Assembly (NCBI GenBank): GCA_937921525.1
Contig: CAKZUM010000221.1
Location: 9,342 to 73,341 of the forward strand
Reading direction: 5' to 3'
DNA length: 64,000 nucleotides
Source: an uncultured Saprospiraceae bacterium
Lineage (GTDB): Bacteria; Bacteroidota; Bacteroidia; Chitinophagales; Saprospiraceae
In this document: positions 2,670 to 38,227 of the stretch, in pieces
Numbering within the stretch: the first letter of the stretch is position 1
How the letters are laid out: each line of letters starts with the position of its first letter
The notes under the pieces: generated by a model
The model's input: only the letters and a program-made list of their open reading frames with translations
The model's database searches: none
Told to the model about the DNA's origin: nothing
Position numbers and translations under genes: made by a program

Positions 2670-2677
2670 ACTATTGA
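2670..2677. repeat. Left copy of the 8-bp target-site duplication ACTATTGA of the ISL3 element
   Basis: The identical octamer directly abuts both inverted repeats. Confidence 0.8.
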
Positions 2678-4386: not shown

Positions 4387-4394
4387 ACTATTGA
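4387..4394. repeat. Right copy of the 8-bp target-site duplication ACTATTGA of the ISL3 element
   Basis: Identical to 2670-2677 and directly abuts the right IR. Confidence 0.8.
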
Positions 4395-9235: not shown

Positions 9236-9950
9236 GGAGTGATTCATTCCATATAATAAAATATATGGTTAGAGAGCGAATTATTTTTCTAATATTACAC
9301 TAAAGGTCTTGAATGGTATTTATTTAGACAATTTCTATATACTACAGCAATTCTTTTTATCCAGGTGCTATTTTTTCGACCAATTTATCAACTTACTTTT
9401 TCGTTATTATTGTCTGTAAATGACAATTATAACAATATGAAACCATTTGCTTTGGTTAATGATTTTGTACAGTCAAGGCATGAAATTTTGGACGTAAACG
9501 CATGACTCTTTAATTCTTTTTGTATCTGGTTCTTTTGAAAAAAAATCATTCTATCAATAAACAATTTTGTTTCTTTCCAAACGCTTTAATATCTACTTCC
9601 TAGTATTCTAAAAATAGTAACTAATTTTATTAGATATTATACAATATGAGAGTAACTTACAACCTAAATGTATTAAAAAAAATGACTATACTTTAGTATC
9701 TTGCACTCTTAAAAACTGTTTTTGGGCTGCTTTATACCAAAGTCTGAGAATAGTTTAGAATTGAAATTTAATCTGGTACAGAGATAAATATTATAATAGC
9801 TTCTAGCCTTACTATTCTGCTTTTTATTTCCAGATTATTAATATAAGATACGCTAATATTTTTGTTACTGCCATTGGTAGCGTACGGAGGAGCGTTTTAA
9901 CTACTTTGATAGTATTATCATTTTAAATAGCCCAAATTCAAAAATGAGAA

Positions 9951-10760
9951 ATGAGGATTGCCTTAATAATAACTTTTTCTTACTTAATACTCTTTATTGC
10001 TTCTTGTGAAAGTGAAGAATCGTCAAAAAATAACAATGAACTTACCAACACATCAAGTTCTGAAATGTATGCGCGTTGTAACTGTCCTTTTGGTAAGGTA
10101 GGAGGAGATTATCGAGATTCTACTACGACGACGACTACTTTAGATAATAAGGCACAAGCAAGAGGGGAGGTGTCTTTCAATCAACTTATTAAAAAGTATA
10201 TAGACTTACAATTAGCTGCTTCCTATAAGCAAAATAATAAGAAGGTAGAAACAAAAATGGTGGTACAAAACATTGTTGATCGTTTTCCAGAGTTAACGAA
10301 TCTTGTCCTACTAGAAAAAGATTTATTCTGTGCTTATATACAACTTCGATGCAAGGATACTTCTTTGAGTGATGCTGCTTTTTATGAAGATATACGAGCG
10401 GAGTATGACAATGTAAAAATCATTATTAGGTCGTTTTATAAAGTACCAGCCAAAAAAGAGGTTCTTTCTGTGGTTCCTATAGCTTCAAAAGCTAAAAAAA
10501 AATTTAAAGTTTCTTTAGTTATATATGTAGATAAAATAGGACAGATGTCTGTTCCTGTTTATCTCAAAAATGATAAGCAAAGCGTAGAGCTTATTCCAAC
10601 AAGAAATGGCAATCATTTTTATGTTATAGAAAAAACAGTACCAGAAGGAGAATATACTTTGGAGTGGATAACTAATGAAAATCATCCCTGTTCAGATTAT
10701 TCTATTTCTTTAGAAGTTCACCGAGCCATAGAAAAGAAAATTAATTACCAATGTCTCTAA
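9951..10760 (+). CDS. Hypothetical lipoprotein
   Basis: N-terminal signal with lipobox (LILFIASC). No family recognised. Confidence 0.7.
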   Translation: MRIALIITFSYLILFIASCESEESSKNNNELTNTSSSEMYARCNCPFGKVGGDYRDSTTTTTTLDNKAQARGEVSFNQLIKKYIDLQLAASYKQNNKKVETKMVVQNIVDRFPELTNLVLLEKDLFCAYIQLRCKDTSLSDAAFYEDIRAEYDNVKIIIRSFYKVPAKKEVLSVVPIASKAKKKFKVSLVIYVDKIGQMSVPVYLKNDKQSVELIPTRNGNHFYVIEKTVPEGEYTLEWITNENHPCSDYSISLEVHRAIEKKINYQCL

Positions 10761-10772
10761 AAGTTATTAATT

Positions 10773-13073
10773 ATGAAAAGATATTTACTGCTTTTTACCA
10801 TTATACTAGCGGGGATTAATGTGTATGCTCAATCTATTGCTTGCGAAGGTATAGCTATACATAACTATCCTACAAATGATGAAAGGCTTCTTAATATTTC
10901 TAAAGCTTTTAAATCTGTTCTAACCGATTTTTCGGATTGTAAAGTTATCAGTAAAGAAAAATCAGCAGCACATCGAGTAGTTTTTAATGAGGAATATAAA
11001 GAAAGTGAATTTTTTAATATTCTATCAGGAGGAAGGGGGGATAGTATTAAAAAAGTGCTGTTTTTAGAATTTAAACTGATAAAGGAAGATTGGGTTCAAG
11101 TCACCGCAGAAATAAGGAACAGATACAATCTTGTTGATAATTATGATTATATTTCATTGGATTTGGCCGATTTTAGAGAGGAAATTACATCATCAGGCAG
11201 GCGTGAAATTCAAAAATTTGTAGAAAAATTACTTAGAAAAAAGGGCTTGTGTGAGACTAAATTTGATTCCGATAAAACATTTAATATATTGATTACTCTG
11301 TTCAATCTTCCGAGTCGATGTCCGAAAATGGAATCCCCAGAAATAATTGTGCAAGAAGAACTTATATCCTTGTTTAAAGCAGATGGTGTAGAAGTTGTTT
11401 TAGATTGTAGATATGATTACCCAGTTTATAATGAGAAGGATGCTTATGAACGAGCAGAGATTGTTGAAAAGGTAGATATGGTGCTTTGGGGAGAATATCG
11501 AATTAAGTGTAATCAGCAAGAAGAGATTAGTTATAACTATAATCTTATGCAAGAACCAACTAAATCATTTATTCGACAAGTTGGTAAGAGTGGGCGCTCT
11601 TTACCCAGAATGGCAATAGCTAATTCTTTTGAAGGCAAATTAGGGCCTATTGTTTATTGGAATATAGTAGATAAATGCTTAAAAAATATTAAAGACAATA
11701 TTGAAGCACAAGAGAATGAAAAAACAGCTTTGAAATATTTGAGAAAAATTGATGAAGCTACTAATGAACAAGATTTTATTCAAAGAGCGACCATTAATTA
11801 CAAATTTGCGGATCTTCATTATTCTAAAATTGCGAGTAAAAATCAATTGAAGGAATGTGCTAATTACTACAACAAGGGATTTAGTTATGATAATACAACG
11901 GAATATGCTAAAAGAAAGGAATGGATTCAACGATTAGAAATTTTACAGTATTTACATACGGATCGTAAAGAGCTATATACTGTCATTAGCGAGGAGATAG
12001 CACAGCAAGCAAAAGATTTAATGCTCCTGTTAGACCGAATTATTATTCCTACTAACAAAGAAGATCTTTTATTTTTGCTAAGAATGGCTAAGTTGGTAGA
12101 TGTGAGTTATTCCAATCAAGTAAGCAAAATTTTAGCAAGTGCAGATCAAAGTAAAGATAAAGTTGTATTACTTGCATTATACGACTTCCGTGTAGTCGTG
12201 ACTAAACAATATGATATTGTCTTAAATGCTAAAATAAAGAAAATATCTGGAGCTGAAAGCTTTGAAAATGATTGGGATGTATGGCATAATAAAGAAGATG
12301 TAAACAAGAAAGAGTACCTATTAAATAATATATTTACCCACCAAAAAGAAAACCCAACTTGGCATTTAATACTTGCCCGTTTTTATAGCCAAACTAAAGA
12401 AAAAGATTTAGGTCTTTTTCATTTTGCATCCGCTTGTGTATTGGATTCTGAAAATAAGGCTTATTTAGAGGAAGTTAAGATTTTAGACTTTTTGGGTTTC
12501 TTAAGAAACAGACCTATTTCTCCAGAACCCGTTCCATCCCCTAACCATATCCACTATGTAGGAGAAGATAGAGAATTTAAAAATTTAGTGTCAGAACTTA
12601 AAAAATTAAATAGTGAATTAGCAAAAGAAGTAAAAGCAAGGTATCCTAATGAATATAACAACAATAGCATTGTAGGCACTAAAGATAAAATTGTGCTGTA
12701 TACTGGAGAAAAAGCTTTACGTCATTTGGTTAGACCTGATGAAGGTCTAAGTGAAATTGTTGATGGCAGTAATGATTTAAAAACTCATCACGATCATGAT
12801 GGCTACGAAAAATTCATAAATACTAAAAAACACAATATAAATATTAAGAGTATTCGCCAGCTAAATAAGCTTAATGGTAATTGTAGAACTTATCACCCTA
12901 ATACTTATTTACTTATCAAAAGAGGAGTAAATACAATAATAAAAGCAATTGATGAGCCTATTTCTCTTGATATGGCTGCAAAGAAATTTAAGATAAGTAG
13001 AAAAGAATTGTTAAAAATGAATGGTCTACCTGGGGCACAATTAAATAAATGCCTATGGATAACCAAGAACTAA
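10773..13073 (+). CDS. Hypothetical secreted protein (766 aa); helical-repeat middle, possible LysM-like C-terminal segment
   Basis: Cleavable signal peptide (LAGINVYAQS). Two segments resemble the TolB-N/LpoB-like pattern (ILITLFNLPS...VDMVLWGEY). The C-terminal SLDMAAKKFKISRKELLKMNGL is LysM-like, a tentative call. Confidence 0.7.
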   Translation: MKRYLLLFTIILAGINVYAQSIACEGIAIHNYPTNDERLLNISKAFKSVLTDFSDCKVISKEKSAAHRVVFNEEYKESEFFNILSGGRGDSIKKVLFLEFKLIKEDWVQVTAEIRNRYNLVDNYDYISLDLADFREEITSSGRREIQKFVEKLLRKKGLCETKFDSDKTFNILITLFNLPSRCPKMESPEIIVQEELISLFKADGVEVVLDCRYDYPVYNEKDAYERAEIVEKVDMVLWGEYRIKCNQQEEISYNYNLMQEPTKSFIRQVGKSGRSLPRMAIANSFEGKLGPIVYWNIVDKCLKNIKDNIEAQENEKTALKYLRKIDEATNEQDFIQRATINYKFADLHYSKIASKNQLKECANYYNKGFSYDNTTEYAKRKEWIQRLEILQYLHTDRKELYTVISEEIAQQAKDLMLLLDRIIIPTNKEDLLFLLRMAKLVDVSYSNQVSKILASADQSKDKVVLLALYDFRVVVTKQYDIVLNAKIKKISGAESFENDWDVWHNKEDVNKKEYLLNNIFTHQKENPTWHLILARFYSQTKEKDLGLFHFASACVLDSENKAYLEEVKILDFLGFLRNRPISPEPVPSPNHIHYVGEDREFKNLVSELKKLNSELAKEVKARYPNEYNNNSIVGTKDKIVLYTGEKALRHLVRPDEGLSEIVDGSNDLKTHHDHDGYEKFINTKKHNINIKSIRQLNKLNGNCRTYHPNTYLLIKRGVNTIIKAIDEPISLDMAAKKFKISRKELLKMNGLPGAQLNKCLWITKN

Positions 13074-15531: not shown

Positions 15532-16760
15532 TAAATAAAAATTTGGATTCAGAAGATATTAGTATATGGAAGAAAAGACCATTAAAAGAAGTTAGCCTAA
15601 TGAATGGAAGGATAGGATGGCAAGGATTAAAGAAAGTTGAATTCACTATGAATCCCCATGAGCCTTTTTTGATTACAGGCATGAATTTTAAGGATGGGGC
15701 AATAAGATGGGAAGAGGTATATCGTATTTCTATGAAGAGATACGAAGAAGCAAAACAGATACAACTAGCTAAAGGAGATGTGTTAATGACAAAAGATGGC
15801 ACCATTGGCAAGTTACTTTATGTAGATGATATTCCCTTTCCTAGTTTAGCTTCTTTAAATAGTCATTTACTATTATTTCGACCAATAAGAAATTCTTATG
15901 TGCCTAAATTTCTTTATTATCAACTTGCTTCTAAGCGTTTTGAAGACTTTATTGAATTAAATAAATCAGGGACTACGTTTTTTGGTATATCGCAGGAATC
16001 TGTTGGTAAATATTTGGTTCTTCTTCCTCCTTTAAAAGAACAAAAAGCCATAGCCACCGCCCTCTCCGACATAGACCACTTACTCCAATCCCTCGACCAA
16101 CTCATCGCCAAAAAACGAGCGATCAAACAAGGAGCGATGCAGCAATTGTTGACTCCGCCAGCGGAAGGAGGAAAGCGGTTGGAGGGGTTTAGTGGGGCGT
16201 GGGAGGTGAAGAACTTAGGAGATGTAGTTGAATTTAAGAATGGTAAAGCACATGAAAATAGCATTTCAAAACATGGCCAATTTATCGTAATCAATTCAAA
16301 GTTTGTTTCCACTGAAGGAAAAGTAAAAAAATATTCTAATAATTGTTTGTGCCCTGTATATACAAATGATATAGTTATGGTTATGAGTGATATTCCAAAT
16401 GGAAAGGCAATAGCAAAATGTTTTTATATTGGTGAGGGTAAGCATTATACTCTAAATCAAAGGATATGTGCATTGACATCTAAAAGTTCATCATCCAAAT
16501 TTCTATTTTACCTAATAAATAGACACCCATATTATCTAGGATTTGATGATGGAGTCAAACAAACTAATTTAAGAAGAGATGATGTATTAGATTGTCCTTT
16601 ATCTATGCCTTCAACACTTCAAGAACAAAAAGCCATCGCTCAGGTTCTAACCGACATGGACACCGAAATAGAAATCCTAGAACAACAACGCGCCAAATAC
16701 CAAAGCATCAAGCAAGGGATGATGCAGGAATTATTGACGGGCAAAACGAGGTTGGTATGA
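15513..16760 (+). CDS. hsdS: Type I R-M specificity subunit HsdS (two target-recognition domains)
   Basis: Two conserved helical spacers: LPPLKEQKAIATALSDIDHLL...KRAIKQGAMQQLLT and LQEQKAIAQVLTDMDTEIEILE...KQGMMQELLTGKTRL. The gene overlaps hsdM by 19 nt. Confidence 0.95.
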   Translation: MEIKEMINKNLDSEDISIWKKRPLKEVSLMNGRIGWQGLKKVEFTMNPHEPFLITGMNFKDGAIRWEEVYRISMKRYEEAKQIQLAKGDVLMTKDGTIGKLLYVDDIPFPSLASLNSHLLLFRPIRNSYVPKFLYYQLASKRFEDFIELNKSGTTFFGISQESVGKYLVLLPPLKEQKAIATALSDIDHLLQSLDQLIAKKRAIKQGAMQQLLTPPAEGGKRLEGFSGAWEVKNLGDVVEFKNGKAHENSISKHGQFIVINSKFVSTEGKVKKYSNNCLCPVYTNDIVMVMSDIPNGKAIAKCFYIGEGKHYTLNQRICALTSKSSSSKFLFYLINRHPYYLGFDDGVKQTNLRRDDVLDCPLSMPSTLQEQKAIAQVLTDMDTEIEILEQQRAKYQSIKQGMMQELLTGKTRLV

Positions 16761-17812
16761 GTCTGTTTAATCAGTTATTACGCTTATATGGTGATACGAA
16801 ACCAACAGAAGATTTCTTAACAGAAATTTTTGCCTATTGTTTGTTAGTAGAGTTGGAGATATTAGAAGAATTTTTAATTTTTTTTGATATTACTAAGCAA
16901 GTTGATAAGGAGTATTCTCTAAGGACACAGGTATTTTTAAAAAAATTGCCAGCCTATCAACAACAAACGGATAGTAAACCAGATATGGTGCTTTCATCTA
17001 ATACTAGTATAATTTTCTTTGAAAATAAAGTAGGTGCGGACGAACAAGAAGATCAACTACCACGGTATGCAGAACAATTAGATAATATTACAGGAATAGA
17101 GGAGCGGGTTTTAATTTATATTACCAGAGATTTCGACCCCAAAAACGAAACAGCAATTCTAGAAAAATGTAAACGCCCAATTAAATTTATACAGCTTAGA
17201 TGGTATCAAATTTATTTATTTTTAAAAAAATATACTGACCATTCTATCATCAAAGAATTACTATTTTTTATGAACAAAAATAATCTCTCTTCCAATAATC
17301 AGTTTAGTCCGTTAAATATTCTAGCACTTAACAATTTCTCCAATAGCATAAAAATGATGGATAATGTATTAGATGCTATTATTCCTAAATTTCATCTGTT
17401 AGTGGGTAAGGAAAAAACAGGTAATCCTAGAATGGAATCTTTGAAAGAGAAAGAGAGGTATACGGTTCATTCAAAAAACAATGGAATATGGATAAATATG
17501 GGTTTTTACTTTAATACACCTGACTACCCAAATTATCCTGTTTTGAGATTTGACTTTCAAGAACAAGCAAACAATACAAAGAAACCAGGATTAGTGAAAG
17601 TTTTACAAACCATAGATCAAACAGGAAACAAAGATATGAAATGGAAAGGCTATAACTTAAAGCCTAGCGTTAAATTCACGGGGATTAGATTAGAAAAAAG
17701 TATGCAAGATTTTTTACATCAAGAAGATCATATTATACCAATGCAGGCCTATTTTATGCAATGCCTTGAGGAATATGAAAAGATTAAGCCACAGCTAGAA
17801 CCATTTTTATAA
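16757..17812 (+). CDS. RecB-like PD-(D/E)XK nuclease-family protein embedded between hsdS and hsdR
   Basis: ATGA overlap with the hsdS stop. Motifs are D76 (KPDMVL), E89-x-K91 (IIFFENKV) and Q100-xxx-Y104 (DQLPRY). The ORF-track extension from 16592 overlaps hsdS and is rejected. Confidence 0.75.
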   Translation: MSLFNQLLRLYGDTKPTEDFLTEIFAYCLLVELEILEEFLIFFDITKQVDKEYSLRTQVFLKKLPAYQQQTDSKPDMVLSSNTSIIFFENKVGADEQEDQLPRYAEQLDNITGIEERVLIYITRDFDPKNETAILEKCKRPIKFIQLRWYQIYLFLKKYTDHSIIKELLFFMNKNNLSSNNQFSPLNILALNNFSNSIKMMDNVLDAIIPKFHLLVGKEKTGNPRMESLKEKERYTVHSKNNGIWINMGFYFNTPDYPNYPVLRFDFQEQANNTKKPGLVKVLQTIDQTGNKDMKWKGYNLKPSVKFTGIRLEKSMQDFLHQEDHIIPMQAYFMQCLEEYEKIKPQLEPFL

Positions 17813-21757: not shown

Positions 21758-22060
21758 TTAAAGATTGACAGAAGTAGTATTATTACTTTGACTACATACG
21801 ATGGTTACTCTATTACTATATATAGTACCAGAAAAATGTCCACCACCATTTACATTGCCATGGAAAGAAGCCTTATGATGGTAATAAGATATCCCTATAT
21901 CTTCATCTAAAACATGACTATATTGACCAAATGAAGTGTATTCTTCATACTTATATATACAACTGGGGTTAATTTTTTTTCTAAGGAGTTTTACCACCAT
22001 TTTAGCAATATCTATTAATACTTCGTTTGACAAATTTATTTTATCCATTTTAGCACTCAT
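21758..22060 (-). CDS. Hypothetical small protein (100 aa)
   Basis: ORF only. No motif recognised. AT-rich. Confidence 0.35.
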   Translation of the reverse strand: MSAKMDKINLSNEVLIDIAKMVVKLLRKKINPSCIYKYEEYTSFGQYSHVLDEDIGISYYHHKASFHGNVNGGGHFSGTIYSNRVTIVCSQSNNTTSVNL

Positions 22061-22645
22061 TTTATGATAGAAACACCCCCATTTAACTTAGGTTTTGCCA
22101 AGAATCAACACATATAATTGACAAATAGTTTCATTTTGACTGTTATATATTACATTCTTAATATGGCGTCAAATTCATGGACAATTATTCTATTTTCCAT
22201 TTCTTCAATAATGCCTCACAGTTCCCCTTGCACCACCATCTCAAAATTCCCCAACTCCGCTTCCTTAATACTCCGTTGACCATGTTCCTCAAAGTAAGCA
22301 GCAAGACACACCCCACAAGTCAACAACAACCCAGGCTTCCCCCAAGCATTAGCTTGACACTGTTGACCCGGTATATTTGATCTTAGATTTCTTCTTTGGT
22401 TTCTTTACCACTGAAACCTCTTGGCATCATCAAGACAAGAGAAGGTTAAGGAATAGAGTAGACTATAGTACAAAAATCTTTAGCTTTTTGACTGAACAAT
22501 CCATTATGTCACTTAACATAATATGTAATTATTATATATGATATATTATAGACAATTAATCAAAATATATAAATAAAATCATATATTTGAACTAATCAAT
22601 ACCATCCTAACAGTCTTAATATCTATCTAACTCCTCAACTCTTAT

Positions 22646-23344
22646 ATGTCTGAAGATAAAAGATACTCTGTTGTCCTTTTTAATATTTCTCCTCTAAGTT
22701 CAACTTGGATCAAAGAAGTATATAAAAAAATGCAGAAATCTGTTTACTCTGAAGAAGAAGGCGTTGGTTTTAAGAATGTCTACCTACTTAATAATTACTT
22801 GACGGGTACAGTACTTTCCAAAGTGCCTTCTTTCATTCATGAATTTGATTCTAAAAACAGGATATTAAGAAAAAAAGAAATCTTTTTTTTTATAGAAAAC
22901 GATTTTGCAATTGATTCTAAGAATCAAACTCTTGAATTTTTCTGTCCTAATAAAGAAATTACTAGAGTAAAAACTGCTTTGAGAAGTTTCTTACACGAAA
23001 AATCAATCATCTCAGCAAATATTTTTCCTCATAAAATATTGAAAGAATTAGATGAAAGATTTGATTTCTTAAAGGTATGTTCTTTGACTATTAGTCATTA
23101 CAGGCACAGCGAAAAAGTAATAGGTCGTTTTACCTCTAGAGTTGCAGAATACGAAGAAGGAGTGAAACTAATAGCTGAATATGGGGATTATATTTCAAAG
23201 GTCAAATTTATTTTTCATTTAAATGACCAACAAGTAGAAATTGATCTATCGAAAAGTGGAAGAATATCAATAAAATGTTCTGAGAGTATTTTTGATGATA
23301 CATTTCAAATATTAAAAGAGGCTATTAAGAAAAATAATAATTGA
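22646..23344 (+). CDS. Cassette gene 1: hypothetical protein (232 aa), no recognisable family
   Basis: First ORF of a tightly packed three-gene unit. The next ATG lies 2 nt after its stop. Confidence 0.7.
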   Translation: MSEDKRYSVVLFNISPLSSTWIKEVYKKMQKSVYSEEEGVGFKNVYLLNNYLTGTVLSKVPSFIHEFDSKNRILRKKEIFFFIENDFAIDSKNQTLEFFCPNKEITRVKTALRSFLHEKSIISANIFPHKILKELDERFDFLKVCSLTISHYRHSEKVIGRFTSRVAEYEEGVKLIAEYGDYISKVKFIFHLNDQQVEIDLSKSGRISIKCSESIFDDTFQILKEAIKKNNN

Positions 23345-23346
23345 AT

Positions 23347-24270
23347 ATGGCAGAAGACCAAAGCGTAAATGGAGATCGTTGGACTACACAAGCGGCAAAA
23401 TTATTCTCTCGATTAGGATGGAATAAAATAGGAGATTGTAATATAGACGTTCCAGGTGCTGATGGTATTTGTCATGGGATAGATTCTTTATTTACTTATG
23501 AAGATGGCTATTTAAACAAGAAAAAACAAGGAATCTTTTTAGAAGCTAAAAGGTATAAAACTGAAAGCTTTGCTCCTAATAAACTTAGCGGATGGGTACA
23601 AGTCATAAACAATAAAGTAAATGAACTAAAACAATCAAGTCCTTTTCTGGATAAGTATCTCATGAACGACTCAATTAATAATAATGGCGTTCTAGTGATT
23701 TGGTTTCATGATATAGATAACTATAAAGCCTATAAATCTAAATTTCAAAAGGCTTTATTATCTATTTCTACAATTAAAAGAGGTAGTAAAGATTGGACTA
23801 ATAGATTATTTATTATGGATAATTTTATCTTAAGTAGACTAATGTCTCTTTGTAATACCTTAGACACAATAGATAAAGAAAATTTAGATGTAAACTTTTA
23901 CTATGCATCGTCTGTTTCTGATCATGCTGTGGTAGAAAGTAAGATACTCAATTTAGAATTAATGTTTTCCGACTACATATTTATGAAAATTAGAGATCAT
24001 TCCGATGATTCATATACAAAGGAAATAGATACTGTAATATATTATGATGAGTTGAATTTACCCTCCTTTCATAGATTGAAATCAAGTCTAATTCGACATA
24101 ATATGATCAGTAAATCAAACCCTTTACGCTTGTACTTACATAATGATGAAGAAGATGAATCAAGAAAGATACTACCTGAAGTTGAAAAAATATTTTCAGA
24201 CGATGTGAAATCCTTTGAATTGAAGCGTATGAATGTTATTAATAGACTTCCAAATTGGTTAAGAGAATGA
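23347..24270 (+). CDS. Cassette gene 2: protein with N-terminal PD-(D/E)XK restriction-endonuclease-like core (307 aa)
   Basis: AAKLFSRLGW...HGID46SLF...GIFLE66AK68RY matches the D...(D/E)xK core with 19-residue spacing. ATG at 23347; the ORF-track start is TTG at 23341. Confidence 0.7.
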   Translation: MAEDQSVNGDRWTTQAAKLFSRLGWNKIGDCNIDVPGADGICHGIDSLFTYEDGYLNKKKQGIFLEAKRYKTESFAPNKLSGWVQVINNKVNELKQSSPFLDKYLMNDSINNNGVLVIWFHDIDNYKAYKSKFQKALLSISTIKRGSKDWTNRLFIMDNFILSRLMSLCNTLDTIDKENLDVNFYYASSVSDHAVVESKILNLELMFSDYIFMKIRDHSDDSYTKEIDTVIYYDELNLPSFHRLKSSLIRHNMISKSNPLRLYLHNDEEDESRKILPEVEKIFSDDVKSFELKRMNVINRLPNWLRE

Positions 24271-25391
24271 ATCAAAAAGAAAATACTTATAAGTATCCAA
24301 CTAGATACGAACTAAATCTCACTCTAAGCGAACTGACGACTAGAGCATTTGCAGAAAGGCTCGCCAAATCTAAAGGGATTTTTTTTCCTAAAGGTTTACA
24401 ATCTGAAATTGCAGATTCCTTATCATCATTATTTTGGGGACATTCTGATTTAGAGAAAATCAGAAATGCAGCATATAATAGTAAAGTTAAAAAAACACTT
24501 GCAGGTTTTATAGTTAGAACCGAAGACACTGAATTTGATTTACCTAGATTCTTAGATACCTTACGTCGGAATAATACTTTAGGTAAAGATTATGAATTGG
24601 GTCCATTAAGGAAAATGAGTATTCAGGATAGCAAAGAAAACATGTTAAAAGATACTGCGAGAACAACTTATAAATCTAGTTTAAACTACATAAAGAGAAA
24701 ACCAGGAAGAATAGAGTTTTTGAGCGAAGAAATACGACAATTTGATTTTACTATTGAAGAGCGAAACGATAGTGAATGGAAAATTTTAGTAGAATGTCAA
24801 AAATCAACAGACGCTAATGAGATAAAGAAAATTATAGAAACACAAGCACCGAAAAACAGTATAAATATTGATCAATTAGAATACGATTTACTTTCTCCCA
24901 AAGAAACAATTGAGTTTTTTGATAAGCTTGCTGATGTAGGAATGTCAAAGGATTGGAGAATCGAAGACATTAAGTATTTAATATTTAGAAGAGGCGAAGA
25001 CGAAGAAGAGGAAGAAGCTACAGAAGAACAATTATCAGGAATTAGACAAGCAAAACTAGATGGGACTAATCTAAGACAAAATCCATTCGTAAAACAGTCA
25101 GAAAAAAGTGGGTATAGTTTTACTGCAATGACCTATAGATATGAACATAAAACCAAAGGAATAGTTATTCAAATATCTGCGGAATTTAAAATGCGTCCGA
25201 AAGTTTTTGAAATTAGTATCACAAATTACTGGACCCGTGTAGGAATAGGAAGTGACAGCAATATGATAAAAGAAAAGCCACCAATTAGAAAAGAGTTAGA
25301 AATTAAAAGTCATTTTTGGAACAGAGCCAGACAATTATTCAATGAAATAACTGAAACTAAGAAAGAAACAAAAGCTTTATTGAAAATATAG
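24267..25391 (+). CDS. Cassette gene 3: hypothetical protein (374 aa), two halves joined by an acidic linker
   Basis: ATGA overlap with the gene 2 stop (24267-24270). Linker RRGEDEEEEEATEEQ. No family recognised. Confidence 0.7.
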   Translation: MNQKENTYKYPTRYELNLTLSELTTRAFAERLAKSKGIFFPKGLQSEIADSLSSLFWGHSDLEKIRNAAYNSKVKKTLAGFIVRTEDTEFDLPRFLDTLRRNNTLGKDYELGPLRKMSIQDSKENMLKDTARTTYKSSLNYIKRKPGRIEFLSEEIRQFDFTIEERNDSEWKILVECQKSTDANEIKKIIETQAPKNSINIDQLEYDLLSPKETIEFFDKLADVGMSKDWRIEDIKYLIFRRGEDEEEEEATEEQLSGIRQAKLDGTNLRQNPFVKQSEKSGYSFTAMTYRYEHKTKGIVIQISAEFKMRPKVFEISITNYWTRVGIGSDSNMIKEKPPIRKELEIKSHFWNRARQLFNEITETKKETKALLKI

Positions 25392-25785
25392 CAGTATCTT
25401 ATTGAATAAGTAGGGTCTCCAACAATGTAAGCAAAAATGGTCAAGTGGCTAGAGGAACGAAAAGTAACACATATTACAACGGCATCCTCATCAATCATTT
25501 AAAATTTTTACTAAATGGAATAGCTACAGTTCCAAGTAGTCTATATTCTTTAATCGAAAACTCCCGGATTGAAGTTCCTCCATTTCTAAATCCGTAAACA
25601 AGTCTATTTTTTGGTTAGTTTTTCGTTCGCTCGAGCTAGTCCTTTCCTGAAAATTAGTGAGTACTTTCCCAATAGCGTATTCCTTTTTGGATTCTAGTAG
25701 CTAAATTTAAGGCGGTGTGCTGATGTAATTATAATGGTAAATCAGCCATCATTTAGTAAGGGAGTCTTCGCAATACCATTTCTGC

Positions 25786-26022
25786 CTACCCCACAATCTC
25801 CAAATAAGCCTCCTCCGTCAAATCCCCCCATCGAGGCGTATGCAACCGACCCCTCGTTTCCGAATACCAAATCTCCGAATAAGAATCCATATTATGCGGC
25901 CCAACCCCAGCACCCGCCTTCCGAATATATCGCTCAAAGAACCGGATCTCATTGGCCAGCTGCTCCGAGGCATTGGTCACGGAGGTCCCAATATCCGTAT
26001 CTATGAAGGTGATATAGGACAT
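25786..26022 (-). CDS. Hypothetical small protein (78 aa)
   Basis: The minus-strand ORF has protein-like composition (MSYITFIDTDIGTSVTNASEQLANEI...). The overlapping plus-strand ORFs are Pro-rich low-complexity sequence. This patch is GC-richer than its surroundings. Confidence 0.45.
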   Translation of the reverse strand: MSYITFIDTDIGTSVTNASEQLANEIRFFERYIRKAGAGVGPHNMDSYSEIWYSETRGRLHTPRWGDLTEEAYLEIVG

Positions 26023-27603: not shown

Positions 27604-29079
27604 TTATTTTATTTCTTGATGATTATTGATTCCCAATAGAATACTTTGGTTGTTTGATTTGTTGATATTATTAACAGTCAGGTTAATTACATTTCTAGCA
27701 TTTATAGAAGGCTGATTATTCACATTGATGCTCTGAAGTATTTTATTTATCTCTGCTTCAGATATTTTCCCCAGAGGTAATCTAGAAGTTAGTTTTAGGA
27801 AAATAGAAGCTATATCAATCAACGTATCTGTAGCCTTAAGTATTTTATCGGGCAGCGTAGAATTTGTTACAGATTGTTGTTGATTTTTAATTAGATTCCA
27901 AAATCTAGGCTCAGTACTATTGATTAAACCCTCAAATATCTCTCTGGATATGTCATCGTTCGAAAAATAGAAAAACGTTATTTGCGTAGGAGTCCGCTCA
28001 TAAATTTGAATGCCAAAATTCATATGATTTTCACCACTAAAATATCTAGAAAATACTTCTGTTAATTCTAAAAGTAGCTCTTGATTTTCATCCGTTAATA
28101 GAATAGTTTTCATTTCGCTAGATACTCTATATTTAAGAACTCCTGATCCAAAAACGACTTTCTCTTTTTTTTCTAACGACTCTAACAAGTCTCTACTAGG
28201 TTTACTTAAGTTAAAGTAATTTATATTTTCTAATATGACAACACCTTGAATCTTCTCCTCATCTAATAATATTTCCGATACGTTATTAAAAAGCTTTTCT
28301 TTAGGATAAGAAGAGTTTATTTGGAAATTATCTTTAATTTCAGAATTAGTTAATGAGAATCTATTATATGTTTTAAAATCGCTAATTCTGGATTGCTTGT
28401 TAAATATTAGCTTTGTAAATCTCACTTCTTGCTCTGAGTGATTATCTAGTATATCTACTAATGATTTGAATTCACATTTTTCAATATTTAATCCTGTATG
28501 TTCTAATTCAGCAGAAAATTCACAATCATTGATGGAGGTAAACCCTTCAAAAATAGAATTATTAATATCTGTATAGCCGTTAGATTTACTTTTATTAAAA
28601 ATAAATTGATTTCTAAATTTACAGTTTTCAATGTACAAGTGGTCATATTCTATTTCATTAAGGGCTAAGCTTTCAAATTCGCAATCTGCAAAGCGGATAG
28701 GTCCACCAAATTTACTGCCATTAAAATTTACATATTCTCCGAAAATAATATTACTAAAAGTAAAATAATTAATTTTGGAATTTCTAAAATCAACATATCC
28801 ATCTAATTCAAGATTCTTAAAGATAGAAAGAGAACCGTCATGAGGTACTAATATAAATTCTGCAAAACTGAAATGTGGAGTTTTACTTTGAGTATAAGCA
28901 TCTTTAATTATCTTTTCACAGAATTCTTTGAAATGAGCAATTATGCCATTTGCTACTTTAAATTCATAATCCTCACTATGAAATATACACTTTCCATCTT
29001 TATCATGGATAACTTCTTCTACAGTAATAGAACAAGTTAGCGAACTTAATTCTCTTGTAAGATATTGATAGTTGCACAT
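27604..29079 (-). CDS. Pentapeptide-repeat-like protein with unassigned C-terminal domain (491 aa)
   Basis: Residues ~95-210 show the 5-residue periodicity of pentapeptide repeats (FRNSKINYFTFSNIIFGEYVNFNGSKFGGPIRFADCEFESL...). The start codon directly abuts the stop of the upstream gene (TAAATG). Confidence 0.7.
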   Translation of the reverse strand: MCNYQYLTRELSSLTCSITVEEVIHDKDGKCIFHSEDYEFKVANGIIAHFKEFCEKIIKDAYTQSKTPHFSFAEFILVPHDGSLSIFKNLELDGYVDFRNSKINYFTFSNIIFGEYVNFNGSKFGGPIRFADCEFESLALNEIEYDHLYIENCKFRNQFIFNKSKSNGYTDINNSIFEGFTSINDCEFSAELEHTGLNIEKCEFKSLVDILDNHSEQEVRFTKLIFNKQSRISDFKTYNRFSLTNSEIKDNFQINSSYPKEKLFNNVSEILLDEEKIQGVVILENINYFNLSKPSRDLLESLEKKEKVVFGSGVLKYRVSSEMKTILLTDENQELLLELTEVFSRYFSGENHMNFGIQIYERTPTQITFFYFSNDDISREIFEGLINSTEPRFWNLIKNQQQSVTNSTLPDKILKATDTLIDIASIFLKLTSRLPLGKISEAEINKILQSINVNNQPSINARNVINLTVNNINKSNNQSILLGINNHQEIK

Positions 29080-29811
29080 TTAGGAAAGTATTTCTTCACC
29101 TTGTTGGTTAATAAGTAAATCTTTTTGAAAAGTATCGCCTCTATGGTTTTCATAACTTAAGCGAATAAGAAAATCTCTTATTTCTTCTGGGTATTTTTGT
29201 TCACGGTATTTCTTCATTTGGTAACCTGATAGTGTTTTGTTGATTATAAATTTTCCGTTTACAGTAAATGATTTTCCCGCATCAATCGTTCCTAATTTCC
29301 CTGACTTAGATATAGAATTAAATTTTGATCCATTCGGAAAGATTAATTTACAGTTGTAGGCATATTCTTTAGATTCATTCTTTATCTTAATTTCGTAGTT
29401 CCAGCTAAACTCTTTTTCACCTGTCCCCCCAACTTGAAATTTGTAAGAAATAGGTTTTGATGCTGCTCCAAGTGTTCGTAAGGTTATAGTTAATTTAGGA
29501 TCACCTATATTATTATGGACTGTAAGGTTACCTGTATTTTGTATATTTCCTTTACCTCCGATTATTGTCTGTTTAGTTGCTGCTGCTGTGTTGTCAATAA
29601 CTTGTGTGTTACCTTTACCACTGATTATTGTTTGCTTATGCTTGCTTTTTCTCTTAATAAAAAAATTAATAATAAGGGTGATTATCAACACACCAATTCC
29701 TGAGAAAATCCATTCTTTATTTGTTAAAATCCATTCCATTCTATAGGCTTTAAAAGTTGATTGTTTTGGGTTAGCTTCACTAAAATGTATTTCTAAGCTT
29801 CTAATATACAC
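29080..29811 (-). CDS. Small membrane-anchored protein (243 aa ORF; likely 219 aa from the ATG at 29739)
   Basis: N-terminal TM helix (IFSGIGVLIITLIINFFI) followed by KRKSKHK. Internal duplicated motif KQTII(S/G)GKGN(T/I)Q. Immediately precedes the pentapeptide-repeat gene. Confidence 0.65.
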   Translation of the reverse strand: MYIRSLEIHFSEANPKQSTFKAYRMEWILTNKEWIFSGIGVLIITLIINFFIKRKSKHKQTIISGKGNTQVIDNTAAATKQTIIGGKGNIQNTGNLTVHNNIGDPKLTITLRTLGAASKPISYKFQVGGTGEKEFSWNYEIKIKNESKEYAYNCKLIFPNGSKFNSISKSGKLGTIDAGKSFTVNGKFIINKTLSGYQMKKYREQKYPEEIRDFLIRLSYENHRGDTFQKDLLINQQGEEILS

Positions 29812-33892: not shown

Positions 33893-36800
33893 TTAATTCA
33901 TCAAGTAATTGATTTCCAAAACAATCAAATTGTATTGATAAAGATTATCCAAGTAACTTCGCTCTATATGCTTTGCATTTTCCATAGACTGTAGGTATTG
34001 CAAAAAATCTATTTCTCCGTTTTTAAAACCTTTCGTAGCGGTATTGATAATTTCCCTAGACAGCAGGCGCCCATCTTCTTGATAAAACAATAAGGCTTTT
34101 TCATACTTATTCAATTGCGCTTGTAATCGCTCTTTTTTTGCGGCAATAGATAAACGATAATTTAAGGCTTGTTGCTCAATCATTTTTGTTTCAAGTTTAC
34201 CTGCTTCTATGGTGGATCGTTGCGCCTTTCGCCACAAGGGTATGCCCACCCCCACTTGAAAGCCATTATATATTTTGGCATTATCAGCAGTATTACTACC
34301 CAAAAAGTATTCAAGATTGATGTCTGGTAGGGATTGTTTCTTTTCCAATTCAATAGTATTAAGAGAGACATCGGTTGCCGCTTGATATAATTGTAAGCTT
34401 GGATGATTTTCTATCGCAGATTCCTTGATAGCTAATGGCACAAATGAGGCGGTAGAAATAGTAAAAGGTTCTTCTGTCTGTAACCAACTAGCTAAATTGC
34501 TATAGCTCGCTGTAATATTATCGGTACATTGATCTATTTGCAAAGCCATTTCTTTTTGCTTCGTATCCGCTGTCAACTTTTCTAAATAATTAGTTTCCCC
34601 CAATTCATATCTACGAGTAGCTGCAGTTGCAAATTGTAGATATAAACTATCCATGTACTGATAATGTCCTTGGGTAGTTTCCCAGAATTGTATGGTCGTA
34701 TAAATCGTCGTTATTTCTTTTTCTAATAGCCGCTCGGCTATTTTTAAGCGTTGTTCTTGCACTTTCACTTCTGATTCCCTCAACTGCTTTTGCATTTTAT
34801 AAACCGAAGGCAATTTGATTGCTTGTTGGATACCTAGTATACCTAAAGGTTTGTCATTTGCGGCAATGTTGTTTTGGTCGAATCCAAAATAAATATTCGT
34901 TTTATCAATATCATAAGCTCCATTCGTCAGTTCTTGACTACGTTCGATAGCTAGAGAACTAGCTTTCAATCCTGCATTATTCTGTAAAGCAATTTCGATG
35001 GCTTCTTCCAAGGATAAAGTAGTACTTTGTGCTTGTCCAAAATTTGGAAAAATGAAGGTTGCAATAAAGAACAATAGCAAGGTATTCGAAGGCAGAATGG
35101 GTGTACTTCCTTTTTCTTGCTTATCAAAAAGTGCATATAAAACAGGGAGTACAATCAGCGTCAATAAAGTGGCCGAAATCAAGCCCCCCACCACTACTGT
35201 TGCCAAAGGACGTTGTACTTCTGCCCCTGCGGAAGTAGACAATGCCATTGGGATAAAGCCCAATGCTGCCGCCGAGGCAGTCAATAATACAGGGCGCAAG
35301 CGTTGCTGTGTTCCCAGTATCACTCGTTCTTTTAAATTATCCATACCCTGTGCTTTTAGTTCTTTAAAATGTTCAATCAATACAATGCCATTTAAAACAG
35401 CAATACCAAAAAGTGCAATAAATCCAACACCTGCAGAAATACTAAAAGGCATATCTCTAAAGTACAATAGCAGAATGCCACCGACAGCAGATAAAGGAAT
35501 CGCAGTATAAACCATCAATGCCTCTTTTATAGATTGAAAAGCGAAGTACAATAAAATAAAAATCAAGACCAATGCGATGGGTACAGCGACCATTAAACGG
35601 TCTCTAGCATTTCGAAGATTTTCAAATTGACCACCATAAATAACAGAATAGCCAACTGGAATTTTGACTTTAGTATCTATGATTGCTTGTACATCATTGA
35701 CGACCGATTCTAAATCTCGATTTCGTACATTTACCCCAACAACAATTCTTCTCTTGGTATCATCTCTAGAGATTTTAGCAGGACCTTTGGTGTAGCTAAT
35801 GTCTGCCAACTCGCTTAATGGAATTTGGCCACCATTGGATAAAGTAATGGAACTATTTCGGATGTTATCAATATCTTTTCTGAATTCAGCAGCATATCTA
35901 ACGACCAAGTCAAATTGCTTTTCCCCCTCGAATACACTTCCTGCGGGTAAACCAGCAAAACTCATCGTCAACATTTGGTTAACCTGTTCGATATTCAATC
36001 CAAAGTTGGCGATTTTTGCTCGATTATATTTAACCGACATTTGCGGCAAACCTGCCACTTTTTCAACTGAAATATCTGCCGCCCCTTCTACGCCTTCAAT
36101 GGCTTTTTTTATTTCCTGTGCCTTTTTATTCAGTACCTCCAAATCATCTCCAAAGAGCTTAATGGCTAAATCTGCTCGTACCCCCGTAATCAATTCATTA
36201 AATCGCATTTCAATGGGTTGGGTAAATTCATAGTCTAAACCTGGAATATCCGATAAGGCTTCTTTGAAAGCATCGGCTAATTCATCTTTGGTAGTTGCTG
36301 AGGTCCATTCTGAAGGAGGTTTTAAAGTAATGATGACATCACTCTCTTCCATAGACATCGGATCGGTTGGCACTTCTGCTGCCCCAATTCTGGTGACTAC
36401 CTGCTTGACCTCTGGAAAGGTCTTCAATATTTTTTCTATTTGAGTGGTTGTTTCTATGGTTTTACTAAGATTTGTTCCTGTTTTTAAAACGGGCTGAATG
36501 ACAAAATCTCCTTCATCCAAGGTAGGCACAAATTCCCCCCCCATCTGAGTAAATAAAATGCCAACACCTACTAAAAGTACCACCGCTAAGAAAAGGACAA
36601 TTCCTTTAAATCTTAATGCTAGCGTAATAACAGGGGTGTATATTTTTTCTAAAAAGGTAAGAATGATAACCGAAATATTTTTACTACTCTGAGCCGCAGG
36701 TTTGAGGAATAAGGCAGCCATAACAGGAACATAAGTAAAGCATAGTACCATCGCCCCAACGAGCGCAAAGCAAAAAGTCATGGCCATTGGGCTAAACATT

Positions 36801-38227
36801 TTCCCCTCAATATCAGATAAGGATAAGATAGGAATGAAAACGATAATAATAATTAACTGCCCAAAGACCGCAGAGCGCATCATTTTAGTAGCACTCTTAA
36901 AAGTAATCGCATCAATTTTATTGCGTTTCTCCGCAACGCCTAAACTAGCCAATTGACTGCTTTGAGCCGTAATTTGAAAAGCAATATATTCTACAATAAT
37001 AACCGCACCGTCAATGATGATTCCGAAGTCAATGGCACCTAAACTCATGAGGTTAGCATCTACCCCAAATAGATACATCAAAGACAAGGCGAACAATAAA
37101 GAAAGTGGAATGACAGAGGCGACTAATAATCCAGAACGGATATTACCTAACAAAACGACAACGACAAAGATAACTATCAGACAACCTAAAATAAGGTTTT
37201 CGGCAATGGTAGAAGTGGTTTTTCCAATTAGCTCACTTCTATCCAAAAAAGGATTGATAAACACACCTTCAGGTAAAGATTTTTGCACTAATGCGACTCG
37301 TTCCTTTACACTTTCAATCACGGCCTTAGAATTGGCATCTTTCAACATCATTACTTGTCCCAACACCTTTTCGCCTTCCCCATTGGCAGTAATTGCTCCA
37401 AACCGATTAGCCGCTCCAAATTGGACTTTGGCAATATCTTTTACATAAATCGGCATGCCACCTCGATTGGAAACAATAATATTATTAATGTCTTCCATTG
37501 AGCCTATCAGCCCTTCCCCACGAATAAAATAACTCTCATTGCCTTTTTCAATATAGCCACCACCAGCGACACTATTATTATTTTCTAAAGCGGTAAACAC
37601 CTCGGAAACTGAAATATTCATAGCTCGCAATCGCACAGGATTAACCGATACTTCATACTGTTTGAGTTGACCACCCCATGTATTTACCTCTACTACCCCA
37701 GGAATACCCGATAATTGCCTTTTGACAATCCAATCCTGCATCGTCCGCAAATCCATGATAGAATATTGATCTTCATAGCCTGGCTTAACATCTAAGATAT
37801 ATTGATAAATTTCTCCTAATCCCGTAGAGACAGGCCCCATAAATGGACTACCAAAACCTTTAGGGATTTTTTCTTCTGCACTTTTTATCTTCTCTCCAAT
37901 CAATTGCCGAGGTAAGTAGGTTCCCATTTCATCCTCAAAAACAATGGTCACAACGGATAAACCAAATTTGGAAATAGACCGAATCTCCTTGACGCCTGGC
38001 AGGTTCGCCATTTCTAACTCCACAGGATAGGTAATAAATTGTTCTACGTCTTGTGTGGATAAATTTCGGGAAGTAGTAATTACCTGTATTTGGTTATTGG
38101 TCACATCTGGTACCGCCCCAATAGGTATGTTGAAGAGGGAATAAATACCGAAACCGATAATCCCTAAAGTAAATAGAAGGATAAGTAGTTTGTTATGAAT
38201 ACTGTAATTGATGATTTTTTCGAGCAT
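33893..38227 (-). CDS. CusA/CzcA-type heavy-metal RND permease fused to a C-terminal TolC/CzcC-like outer-membrane-factor domain (1444 aa)
   Basis: The N-terminal ~1040 aa are CzcA-like (MLEKIINYSI..., 12 TM pattern). A linker plus hydrophobic segment follows (LLLFFIATFIFPNFGQAQS), then OMF-like repeats (LSLEEAIEIALQNNAGLKAS...). Confidence 0.9.
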   Translation of the reverse strand: MLEKIINYSIHNKLLILLFTLGIIGFGIYSLFNIPIGAVPDVTNNQIQVITTSRNLSTQDVEQFITYPVELEMANLPGVKEIRSISKFGLSVVTIVFEDEMGTYLPRQLIGEKIKSAEEKIPKGFGSPFMGPVSTGLGEIYQYILDVKPGYEDQYSIMDLRTMQDWIVKRQLSGIPGVVEVNTWGGQLKQYEVSVNPVRLRAMNISVSEVFTALENNNSVAGGGYIEKGNESYFIRGEGLIGSMEDINNIIVSNRGGMPIYVKDIAKVQFGAANRFGAITANGEGEKVLGQVMMLKDANSKAVIESVKERVALVQKSLPEGVFINPFLDRSELIGKTTSTIAENLILGCLIVIFVVVVLLGNIRSGLLVASVIPLSLLFALSLMYLFGVDANLMSLGAIDFGIIIDGAVIIVEYIAFQITAQSSQLASLGVAEKRNKIDAITFKSATKMMRSAVFGQLIIIIVFIPILSLSDIEGKMFSPMAMTFCFALVGAMVLCFTYVPVMAALFLKPAAQSSKNISVIILTFLEKIYTPVITLALRFKGIVLFLAVVLLVGVGILFTQMGGEFVPTLDEGDFVIQPVLKTGTNLSKTIETTTQIEKILKTFPEVKQVVTRIGAAEVPTDPMSMEESDVIITLKPPSEWTSATTKDELADAFKEALSDIPGLDYEFTQPIEMRFNELITGVRADLAIKLFGDDLEVLNKKAQEIKKAIEGVEGAADISVEKVAGLPQMSVKYNRAKIANFGLNIEQVNQMLTMSFAGLPAGSVFEGEKQFDLVVRYAAEFRKDIDNIRNSSITLSNGGQIPLSELADISYTKGPAKISRDDTKRRIVVGVNVRNRDLESVVNDVQAIIDTKVKIPVGYSVIYGGQFENLRNARDRLMVAVPIALVLIFILLYFAFQSIKEALMVYTAIPLSAVGGILLLYFRDMPFSISAGVGFIALFGIAVLNGIVLIEHFKELKAQGMDNLKERVILGTQQRLRPVLLTASAAALGFIPMALSTSAGAEVQRPLATVVVGGLISATLLTLIVLPVLYALFDKQEKGSTPILPSNTLLLFFIATFIFPNFGQAQSTTLSLEEAIEIALQNNAGLKASSLAIERSQELTNGAYDIDKTNIYFGFDQNNIAANDKPLGILGIQQAIKLPSVYKMQKQLRESEVKVQEQRLKIAERLLEKEITTIYTTIQFWETTQGHYQYMDSLYLQFATAATRRYELGETNYLEKLTADTKQKEMALQIDQCTDNITASYSNLASWLQTEEPFTISTASFVPLAIKESAIENHPSLQLYQAATDVSLNTIELEKKQSLPDINLEYFLGSNTADNAKIYNGFQVGVGIPLWRKAQRSTIEAGKLETKMIEQQALNYRLSIAAKKERLQAQLNKYEKALLFYQEDGRLLSREIINTATKGFKNGEIDFLQYLQSMENAKHIERSYLDNLYQYNLIVLEINYLMN

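Follow-up and report, generated by a model that had tools for sequence, protein, structure and literature searches.

A conserved three-gene operon beside a type I restriction-modification locus

The window analysed here, 64,000 nucleotides (nt) of contig CAKZUM010000221.1 from an uncultured Saprospiraceae bacterium, carries a type I restriction-modification (R-M) operon and, downstream of it, a compact cassette of three genes whose products we call proteins 1, 2 and 3 (Table 1). Proteins 2 and 3 are distant relatives of the two components of the anti-phage system GAPS4, and protein 1 accompanies them in every related locus. The stop codon of the first gene (TGA, 23342-23344) is followed after a 2-nt gap by the ATG of the second at 23347, and the second and third genes share an ATGA overlap (24267-24270); the first-pass annotation of the window had described three same-strand, translationally coupled open reading frames (ORFs), and its coordinates are exact. 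It had also placed the cassette about 1 kb downstream of the hsd genes on the same strand and called it the more AT-rich of the two, and both observations hold. The YgjP/DUF45 gene that closes the hsdM-hsdS-PDDEXK_4-hsdR operon ends at 21682 on the same strand, 963 nt before protein 1, and the GC content of the cassette is 0.26-0.33, against 0.35-0.42 in the hsd genes and 0.43 in the interval 25500-25999. The same gene order recurs in 21 further distinct loci, far beyond what chance would produce, and we take the cassette to be a genuine, conserved operon of three translationally coupled genes.

Triplet loci were scored with hidden Markov models (HMMs) of the three families, and the set comprises four metagenome loci, 15 species-representative genomes (twelve Bacteroidota, two Chloroflexota and one labelled only Bacteroidetes), a Halobacterium plasmid and one recurring viral element. 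The order protein 1-protein 2-protein 3 is kept in 21 of 21 of these distinct loci, and the junction between the first two genes varies between an overlap of 8 nt and a gap of 6 nt. Three-gene synteny in other genomes, which had been proposed as a test of the cassette, is thus conserved. Two loci are partial exceptions: in one (L016) the nuclease gene is cut off by the end of the contig, and the other is a decayed copy on an uncultured Chloroflexia chromosome (OY969938.1; L018:7580-10014), with protein 3 broken into two ORFs and a shortened protein 1. The decayed copy indicates that the triplet can be lost by pseudogenisation.

The triplet extends to Archaea and to predicted viral DNA. A complete archaeal triplet of overlapping genes, encoding 233, 322 and 433 amino acids (aa), lies on the Halobacterium sp. 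DL1 plasmid CP007061.1 (187497-190463; L025:3330-6296), where it adjoins an integrase and an ISH8 transposase. One identical triplet-bearing element is found on four IMG/VR viral contigs of 29-48 kb (L104-L107) and on a human-faecal scaffold labelled 'Bacteriophage sp.' (L108, MT836957.1), and this recurrence indicates that the triplet also travels on predicted prophage or mobile gut DNA.

Relationship of proteins 2 and 3 to GAPS4

The anti-phage system GAPS4 consists of two genes and was discovered in Gamma-Mobile-Trio islands (Mahata et al., 10.1101/2023.03.28.534373). Its nuclease, GAPS4a, is of a divergent PD-(D/E)xK type marked by HGxD...SxK; neither gene can be dispensed with, and the nuclease Asp is essential in both published systems (10.1101/2025.09.07.674715). 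The same work describes an a2b2 complex of 160.8 kDa that acts as a DNA-break-triggered abortive DNase, reports an expression-dependent autoimmunity cost, and presents an AlphaFold 3 (AF3) model in which two GAPS4b subunits make a ring and GAPS4a is docked on an alpha-helical globular GAPS4b domain (10.1101/2025.09.07.674715). The Vibrio and E. coli systems, although distant from one another, are both canonical and both protect against phages (10.1101/2023.03.28.534373, 10.1101/2025.09.07.674715). The sequences of the validated E. coli RiKo GAPS4a (308 aa) and GAPS4b (385 aa) were read from the AF3 model in the supplement. As a canonical comparison set, 73 metagenomic and 4 viral GAPS4a loci were retrieved, and the ORF 3' of GAPS4a was extracted from each.

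Protein 2 belongs with GAPS4a on several lines of sequence evidence. Its family profile aligns with canonical GAPS4a at 97.4% probability over 231 columns (hhalign against a five-sequence canonical alignment, E 9.3e-12) and with the validated GAPS4a-RiKo at 75% (E 2.6e-5), colinearly over residues 8-223 and 8-220, respectively. Profiles replaced direct BLASTP against the RiKo proteins because pairwise comparison was too insensitive; by BLASTP, only the HGID region of protein 2 aligns with GAPS4a-RiKo (E 0.019). The family PF26115 (PDDEXK_GAPS4), from a newer Pfam release than the copy that we searched, is precomputed on the identical database protein (P0001) and on all 22 homologues, and one UniRef name among the relatives reads "GAPS4 PD-(D/E)XK nuclease domain-containing". 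We therefore regard protein 2 as a distant but demonstrable homologue of GAPS4a and a predicted PD-(D/E)xK nuclease.

The active site of protein 2 is characteristic of its clade. A restriction-endonuclease-like core built on D46, E66 and K68 had been recognised in the first-pass annotation; it is of the PD-(D/E)xK type, and G44, D46, E66, A67 and K68 are invariant in the 22 family members. The clade motif reads xGxD...E[A/S]K, with a His that varies within the clade. At the position of E66, the 66 full-length canonical GAPS4a proteins have Ser in 60 cases, Thr in 5 and Glu in none.

For protein 3, the link to GAPS4 emerges at the level of profiles. The family profile matches 40 non-redundant canonical GAPS4b proteins at 96.2% probability (hhalign, E 2.1e-9) and a broader 141-sequence GAPS4b profile at 98.9% over 341 columns (E 3.1e-17). 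The protein 3 HMM matches 16 of the 1196 ORFs of the canonical loci, and 15 of these are clearly the ORF directly 3' of a canonical GAPS4a (E 9e-7 to 4e-4). Comparisons with individual sequences gave no such signal: BLASTP of protein 3 against GAPS4b-RiKo returned nothing, the protein 3 profile gave a weak N-terminal match to a single GAPS4b that was not significant (E 0.015), and phmmer with GAPS4b-RiKo found no significant bridging match among 182 protein 3 relatives. On the profile evidence, we consider protein 3 to be a divergent GAPS4b homologue. For both proteins 2 and 3, reciprocal HMM scores are 92-474 bits within each clade versus -0.5 to 46 bits across clades.

The profile libraries that we searched missed these relationships. 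Proteins 1-3 match no family of PADLOC-DB v2.0.0 at E <= 1, including those of Hachiman, Gabija, Septu, Lamassu, Zorya, Kiwa, Druantia, Thoeris, Menshen, Azaca, Shango and Detocs, its PDC candidates and its PD-T4, PD-T7 and PD-lambda systems, and have no significant match in Pfam-A or NCBIfam. The Pfam-A copy that we searched lacked PF26115, as even canonical GAPS4a went unmatched there, and a negative Pfam scan can thus hide families that are present in precomputed annotations. The profile search for a named system that the first-pass annotation had suggested accordingly drew a blank in PADLOC-DB and led to GAPS4 for proteins 2 and 3, while protein 1 was left without a named system.

A predicted RdgC-like fold in protein 3

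RdgC is a recombination-associated protein whose ring-shaped dimers bind DNA non-specifically in a basic pore, and its fold is also found in lambda RexA and in IML3/CHL4, with members acting as homodimers or heterodimers on DNA (PMC11077077). The AlphaFold2 (AF2) model of protein 3, built from a 35-sequence alignment, has a predicted local distance difference test score (pLDDT) of 89.2 and a predicted template modelling score (pTM) of 0.84, and consists of an N-terminal four-helix domain followed by an alpha/beta body. When this model was searched with Foldseek, E. coli RdgC (2owl) was the top match in the PDB (E 2.2e-6, probability 1.00), followed by Iml3; in BFVD, the top seven matches had a probability of 1.00 (E 4e-7 to 8e-6), and four of the seven are annotated as phage RdgC. 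No counterpart of this match was seen in the sequences: protein 3 has no match to Pfam RdgC (PF04381) at E <= 1, and hhalign of the protein 3 and GAPS4b profiles against E. coli RdgC gave probabilities of <= 0.5%. The model thus predicts an RdgC-type fold for protein 3, without sequence membership in the RdgC family (PF04381). It does not bear out the earlier description of protein 3 as two halves joined by an acidic linker, as the predicted structure is a helical N-terminal domain plus a single body of RdgC-like fold, on whose surface the acidic stretch forms a loop.

The N-terminal helical region of protein 3 aligns with the N-terminus of GAPS4b and, by analogy with the published complex, would likely be the docking site for the nuclease. 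The Halobacterium orthologue has an extra C-terminal helix-hairpin-helix, which scores 26.0 bits, just below the Pfam cutoff of 27 bits. Such a domain is consistent with DNA binding.

A fast-evolving third protein throughout the clade

A gene for 224-233 aa lies directly 5' of the nuclease gene in every related locus, and its product is 14-37% identical to protein 1. Protein 1 is thus a fast-evolving partner that always accompanies this branch of GAPS4, and it is undescribed in the literature that we searched. Median pairwise identity is 24.9% for protein 1 versus 40.7% and 39.4% for its partners, and protein 1 is the least conserved of the three in 165 of 171 locus pairs. A word-indexed homologue search with protein 1 returned the protein itself alone, a sensitivity artefact given the relatives at these low identities in every related locus. 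The family has one invariant residue, G160, no catalytic-looking motif, and orthologue charges from +4 to -20.

No significant match to protein 1 was found in PADLOC, Pfam, NCBIfam or PDB sequences. It does match PHROG family phrog_5850, of unknown function, 11 of whose 20 members are hit (best E 1.6e-12). PHROG counterparts exist for all three families; the Halobacterium versions of proteins 2 and 3, too, belong to PHROGs without an assigned function. The first-pass annotation had recognised no family for proteins 1 and 3, and this stands for protein 1, apart from PHROG 5850; protein 3 was the one of the two that could be placed.

Several possible origins of protein 1 were tried and rejected, and hhalign detected no relationship to GAPS4a, GAPS4b, protein 2, protein 3, RdgC or NA37. 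Probabilities below 1% led us to reject an origin of protein 1 by splitting or duplication from GAPS4a, GAPS4b or either of its two partners. Its N-terminal region had looked like that of a small RdgC-like protein, a lead that received no sequence support by hhalign, and a diverged NA37 was rejected at a probability of 0.1%. Weak matches to uL23 in PDB sequence searches (E 0.04-0.14) were treated as chance. The fold searches suggested in the first-pass annotation, informative for protein 3, failed here: the single-sequence AF2 model has a pLDDT of 44 and is unusable, and its Foldseek matches to RAD51 paralogues and KaiC, at a template modelling (TM) score of ~0.16, are meaningless.

Canonical GAPS4 loci gave no sign of protein 1. 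Its HMM found nothing at E <= 1 in 74 canonical loci, of which 32 are non-redundant and extend more than 800 nt upstream. In the canonical locus of the Ewingella plasmid, the upstream gene encodes a recombinase. A second three-gene layout was seen in three of the most divergent canonical loci, all from metagenomes, where a gene for NA37, a YejK/NdpA-type nucleoid-associated protein (PF04245), ends less than 30 nt from the GAPS4a start (L091:627-1676, L093:141-1214 and L097:2044-3069). These operons resemble the cassette in having a tightly coupled extra 5' gene on a GAPS4 core; they differ in that the extra gene is unrelated to protein 1 and the core genes are of the canonical type. They suggest that GAPS4 cores recruit variable accessory subunits.

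Genomic neighbourhood and features of the window

The first-pass annotation had read the cassette as horizontally acquired in a defence island, and a setting among defence and mobile genes is supported both in the window and elsewhere. The window encodes ISL3 and IS4-type transposases at 2738-6066, and a PDDEXK_4 nuclease-like ORF lies between hsdS and hsdR (Table 1). Among the 133 ORFs that neighbour the triplet in other loci, Pfam matches include five Phage_integrase, TraG, MobC, KAP NTPase, patatin, AAA_21 and HSDR_N_2, and PADLOC matches include PtuA, AriA, MADS and PDC-M01A. Two of the 133 match HSDR_N_2, and most other loci have no hsd operon nearby. This comparison is qualitative. Outside the triplet no gene context is conserved, as is typical of defence cargo.

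Individual neighbourhoods are varied. The PDDEXK_4/PDC-S26 family also adjoins the triplet in other loci, for example L004. In Mucilaginibacter terrae (JAVLVU010000001.1; L006, flanks at 456-3704 and 9026-12645), three tandem tyrosine recombinase genes and DUF932 lie on one side of the triplet, and a patatin-like protein followed by an AAA_21/AAA_15 ATPase on the other; these surroundings are those of a typical integrative defence island.

Other genes of the window merit mention. Two packed plus-strand ORFs stand in front of hsdM (9951-10760 and 10773-13073, 269 and 766 aa) and end 5 nt before its start; they have no Pfam or PADLOC match and could be additional, uncharacterised defence genes joined to the type I R-M operon. 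Downstream of the cassette, on the minus strand at 27604-29811, a 490-aa ORF has a weak pentapeptide-repeat match (26.3 bits, just below the Pfam cutoff of 27 bits); next comes a 242-aa ORF with a weak N-terminal match to the PADLOC candidate PDC-M43A (E 8e-9), and the two may form another defence pair. A 1443-aa minus-strand ORF at 33893-38227 comprises a full AcrB/AcrD/AcrF transporter and, at its C-terminus, an outer-membrane efflux protein (OEP) domain; such a fusion is unusual, and a missed stop or frameshift may instead lie behind it.

The cassette's immediate flanks had been described as ORF-poor DNA carrying gene remnants. The upstream spacer is not wholly free of ORFs, as it holds a minus-strand one; the putative remnants are interrupted frames without a recognisable family, and to call them remnants is plausible but unproven. 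No flanking repeats or attachment (att) sites bound the cassette, and a search for them returned only short AT-rich chance matches. Upstream of protein 1 are a sigma-70-like TTAACA-18-TATGAT (22513-22542, 10/12), of a kind not enriched over shuffled sequence, and a Bacteroidota-type TAnnTTTG motif (22582-22589), both of them consensus matches only. A search for a terminator-like site 3' of protein 3 found none. A Shine-Dalgarno-like core precedes 1 of the 32 long ORFs of the window, whose GC content is 35%, and this fits a Bacteroidota-type host, as does the taxonomy of the relatives.

Table 1. Features of the cassette and its surroundings, in window coordinates
Feature	Position	Strand	Description
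Protein 1 ORF	22646-23344	+	232 aa; first gene of the operon; clade-specific third gene
Protein 2 ORF	23347-24270	+	307 aa; GAPS4a-type PD-(D/E)xK nuclease, predicted effector
Protein 2 catalytic core, H43-G44-I45-D46 ... E66-A67-K68	23473-23550	+	PD-(D/E)xK
Protein 3 ORF	24267-25391	+	374 aa; divergent GAPS4b; predicted partner or sensor that would form a DNA-binding ring
Protein 3 N-terminal four-helix domain	24303-24479	+	Residues ~13-71; predicted helices H13-22, H26-35, H45-53, H59-71 (AF2)
Protein 3 RdgC-like alpha/beta body	24495-25388	+	Residues ~77-374; predicted (Foldseek)
Protein 3 acidic stretch, RRGEDEEEEEATEEQ	24987-25031	+	Residues 241-255; surface loop within the RdgC-like body (AF2 model)
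Candidate promoter region upstream of protein 1	22513-22589	+	Consensus matches only
Small ORF in upstream spacer	21758-22060	-	96-100 aa; called as a 96-aa gene in public contig copies; GC-richer than the cassette; no family match
Small ORFs or interrupted frames in spacers	22177-22404; 25786-26022 (-)		GC-richer than the cassette; no family match
PDDEXK_4 nuclease-like ORF between hsdS and hsdR	16592-17812	+	Also matches PADLOC candidate PDC-S26

Discussion

The cassette shares with GAPS4 the nuclease family (PDDEXK_GAPS4), a GAPS4b homologue immediately downstream (here overlapping the nuclease gene by ATGA), closely similar protein sizes (307 and 374 aa versus 308 and 385 aa in RiKo), the catalytic Asp and Lys at the same positions, a partner predicted to form rings, and defence-island or mobile contexts. 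The predicted monomer of protein 3, with a helical N-terminal domain and an RdgC-like body, is also consistent with the ring-docking arrangement of the a2b2 complex. There are also differences. Published GAPS4 papers describe two genes and make no mention of a third, whereas a coupled third gene, that of protein 1, stands upstream in all loci of the present clade. HMM scores set this clade deeply apart, and it ranges over Bacteroidota, Chloroflexota and Haloarchaea. Its signature motifs and accessions do not occur in the examined parts of the GAPS4 authors' homologue files. The searched literature holds no description of a third GAPS4 gene or of a link to RdgC, and the GAPS4 preprint notes the ring with no mention of RdgC.

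Other systems are related to the cassette by fold or by logic. RdgC (PDB 2OWL) is the best structural match of protein 3 in both the PDB and BFVD, and its dimeric DNA-binding ring matches the predicted GAPS4b ring; protein 3 has an additional N-terminal helical domain, however, and no nuclease accompanies RdgC. Lambda RexA, of the RexAB exclusion system, combines an RdgC-like fold with non-specific DNA binding and phage exclusion (PMC11077077), and the fold has thus already been used in anti-phage systems. Its partner is the membrane protein RexB and not a nuclease, it has no sequence relationship to protein 3, and it was not among the top structural matches of protein 3. Shedu and Hachiman likewise have a PD-(D/E)xK nuclease that is licensed by sensing DNA ends or damage, a comparison drawn by the GAPS4 authors (10.1101/2025.09.07.674715). 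They rely on other sensors and protein families, Hachiman uses a helicase, and their PADLOC models gave no match to the cassette.

In our view the cassette is likely a three-component member of a deep GAPS4 side branch, with protein 1 as an obligate gating or sensor subunit. By analogy with GAPS4 and RdgC, two copies of protein 3 would make a ring-like scaffold that binds DNA and recognises the broken or linear molecules arising in an infection, and protein 2, with its D46/E66/K68 site, would dock on the N-terminal helical domain of protein 3. Once triggered, the complex would have protein 2 degrade phage and host DNA indiscriminately, and the infection would be aborted. Protein 1 may be the non-enzymatic subunit that controls when the nuclease-ring complex fires, a conjecture favoured by its place as the first and translationally coupled gene of the operon, by its strict co-inheritance with the other two genes, by its evolution, the fastest of the three, by its lack of catalytic signatures, and by its partnership with a nuclease that has a classic ExK site and belongs to a family with a known autoimmunity cost.

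A broader proposal, which we put forward tentatively and think somewhat doubtful, is that the triplet represents a distinct three-subunit form of GAPS4-type immunity, in which the structurally novel, fast-evolving protein 1 (PHROG 5850 family) sets or gates the trigger and the core recruits interchangeable 5' subunits across Bacteria and Archaea. Under such an arrangement, protein 1 could sense a phage factor instead of, or besides, DNA breaks.

A number of points weigh against our favoured explanation of a three-component GAPS4 member. The published signature HGxD...SxK is altered to xGxD...ExK, with Asp and Lys kept, Ser replaced by Glu clade-wide and His not conserved. The link between protein 3 and GAPS4b rests on profile-profile comparison, single-sequence comparison being not significant, and similarity across the clades is so low that function could have shifted. 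TM-scores between protein 3 and RdgC are modest, at 0.35-0.46, and point to a different domain arrangement in protein 3. With a model at pLDDT 44, the gating or sensor role of protein 1 is conjecture, and the comparison of defence genes in the neighbourhood is qualitative. The homology of proteins 2 and 3 to GAPS4, the RdgC-like fold of the protein 3 model, the strict synteny, the absence of protein 1 from the canonical loci and its faster divergence are shown, whereas for this clade we infer anti-phage defence, assembly of a complex, sensing of DNA breaks and what protein 1 does.

The nearest alternative differs from our favoured explanation only in the direction of control. Protein 1 might be an antitoxin-like inhibitor that restrains a more active ExK nuclease against autoimmunity and is displaced or degraded on infection. 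The autoimmunity cost of GAPS4 expression suits such a role, as does the canonical ExK catalytic site of this clade, which canonical GAPS4a lacks. A first, translationally coupled gene would suit stoichiometric co-production, and fast divergence is seen in many antitoxins and immunity proteins. Protein 1 has no homology to any antitoxin or DNA-mimic family, however, and orthologues whose charge runs from +4 to -20 are not consistently acidic DNA mimics, and we consider an inhibitor unlikely, if the most serious of the rivals. A purely structural or DNA-loading subunit is less likely again. Here protein 1 might, for example, pair with protein 3 as IML3 does with CHL4, and so replace or modify the homodimeric ring. 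The RdgC/IML3/CHL4 fold predicted for protein 3, whose members homo- or heterodimerise on DNA, would permit this, the 232 aa of protein 1 are close to the 245 aa of IML3 (PMC11077077), and in other GAPS4 operons the 5' position is taken by NA37, a different DNA-binding protein. Yet hhalign probabilities of protein 1 against RdgC, protein 3 and GAPS4b all fall below 1%, its model (pLDDT 44) is unusable, and a core structural subunit should not outpace its partners in evolution, whereas protein 1 does.

Two further explanations place the triplet, or protein 1, outside a three-component defence system. The triplet could be a DNA repair, recombination or mobile-element maintenance module of integrative elements or prophages. 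RdgC itself is recombination-associated, the triplet often adjoins integrases and conjugation genes and also occurs on a predicted viral contig, and all three families have PHROG counterparts. Against this, both the Vibrio and the E. coli GAPS4 are anti-phage systems that need the nuclease Asp, many of the neighbours have defence matches, and the lack of a conserved context outside the triplet is what is typically seen for defence cargo. We think a repair or maintenance module improbable. It is harder still to see protein 1 as an unrelated neighbour of an ordinary two-gene GAPS4, or the cassette as an accessory of the type I R-M operon. Canonical GAPS4 does work with two genes, and the cassette does lie 963 nt downstream of the hsd operon on the same strand. 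Homologues of protein 1 abut the nuclease gene in 21 of 21 other loci from two domains of life, though, which already contradicts this explanation; the hsd operon is mostly not nearby elsewhere (HSDR_N_2 in 2 of 133 ORFs), and the cassette has its own base composition. Such an explanation is very improbable.

The first-pass annotation had proposed an undescribed orphan defence system. Defence is probably right; the core of the system is already described as GAPS4a/b, and the novelty lies in protein 1 and the obligate triplet, an architecture that is undescribed in the literature searched. If protein 1 proved dispensable, the finding would shrink to a divergent GAPS4 homologue. The family's range is in any case widened to Bacteroidota, including gut taxa and an element of the gut virome, to Chloroflexota and to a haloarchaeal plasmid, a branch that tools with 2023 models such as PADLOC-DB v2.0.0 miss.

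GAPS4 has been characterised only recently, as a two-protein DNase that fires on DNA breaks, and the present findings bear on how it senses DNA and avoids killing its host. The RdgC-like ring fold predicted for a GAPS4b-type partner suggests a mechanism for sensing breaks, in which the ring loads on free ends. A deep branch that always has a third protein is in turn a natural experiment on the regulation of a dangerous nuclease. If the triplet does form a distinct three-subunit class, then together with the NA37 operons it would show the nuclease-ring core of GAPS4 to be a module for interchangeable 5' accessory subunits.

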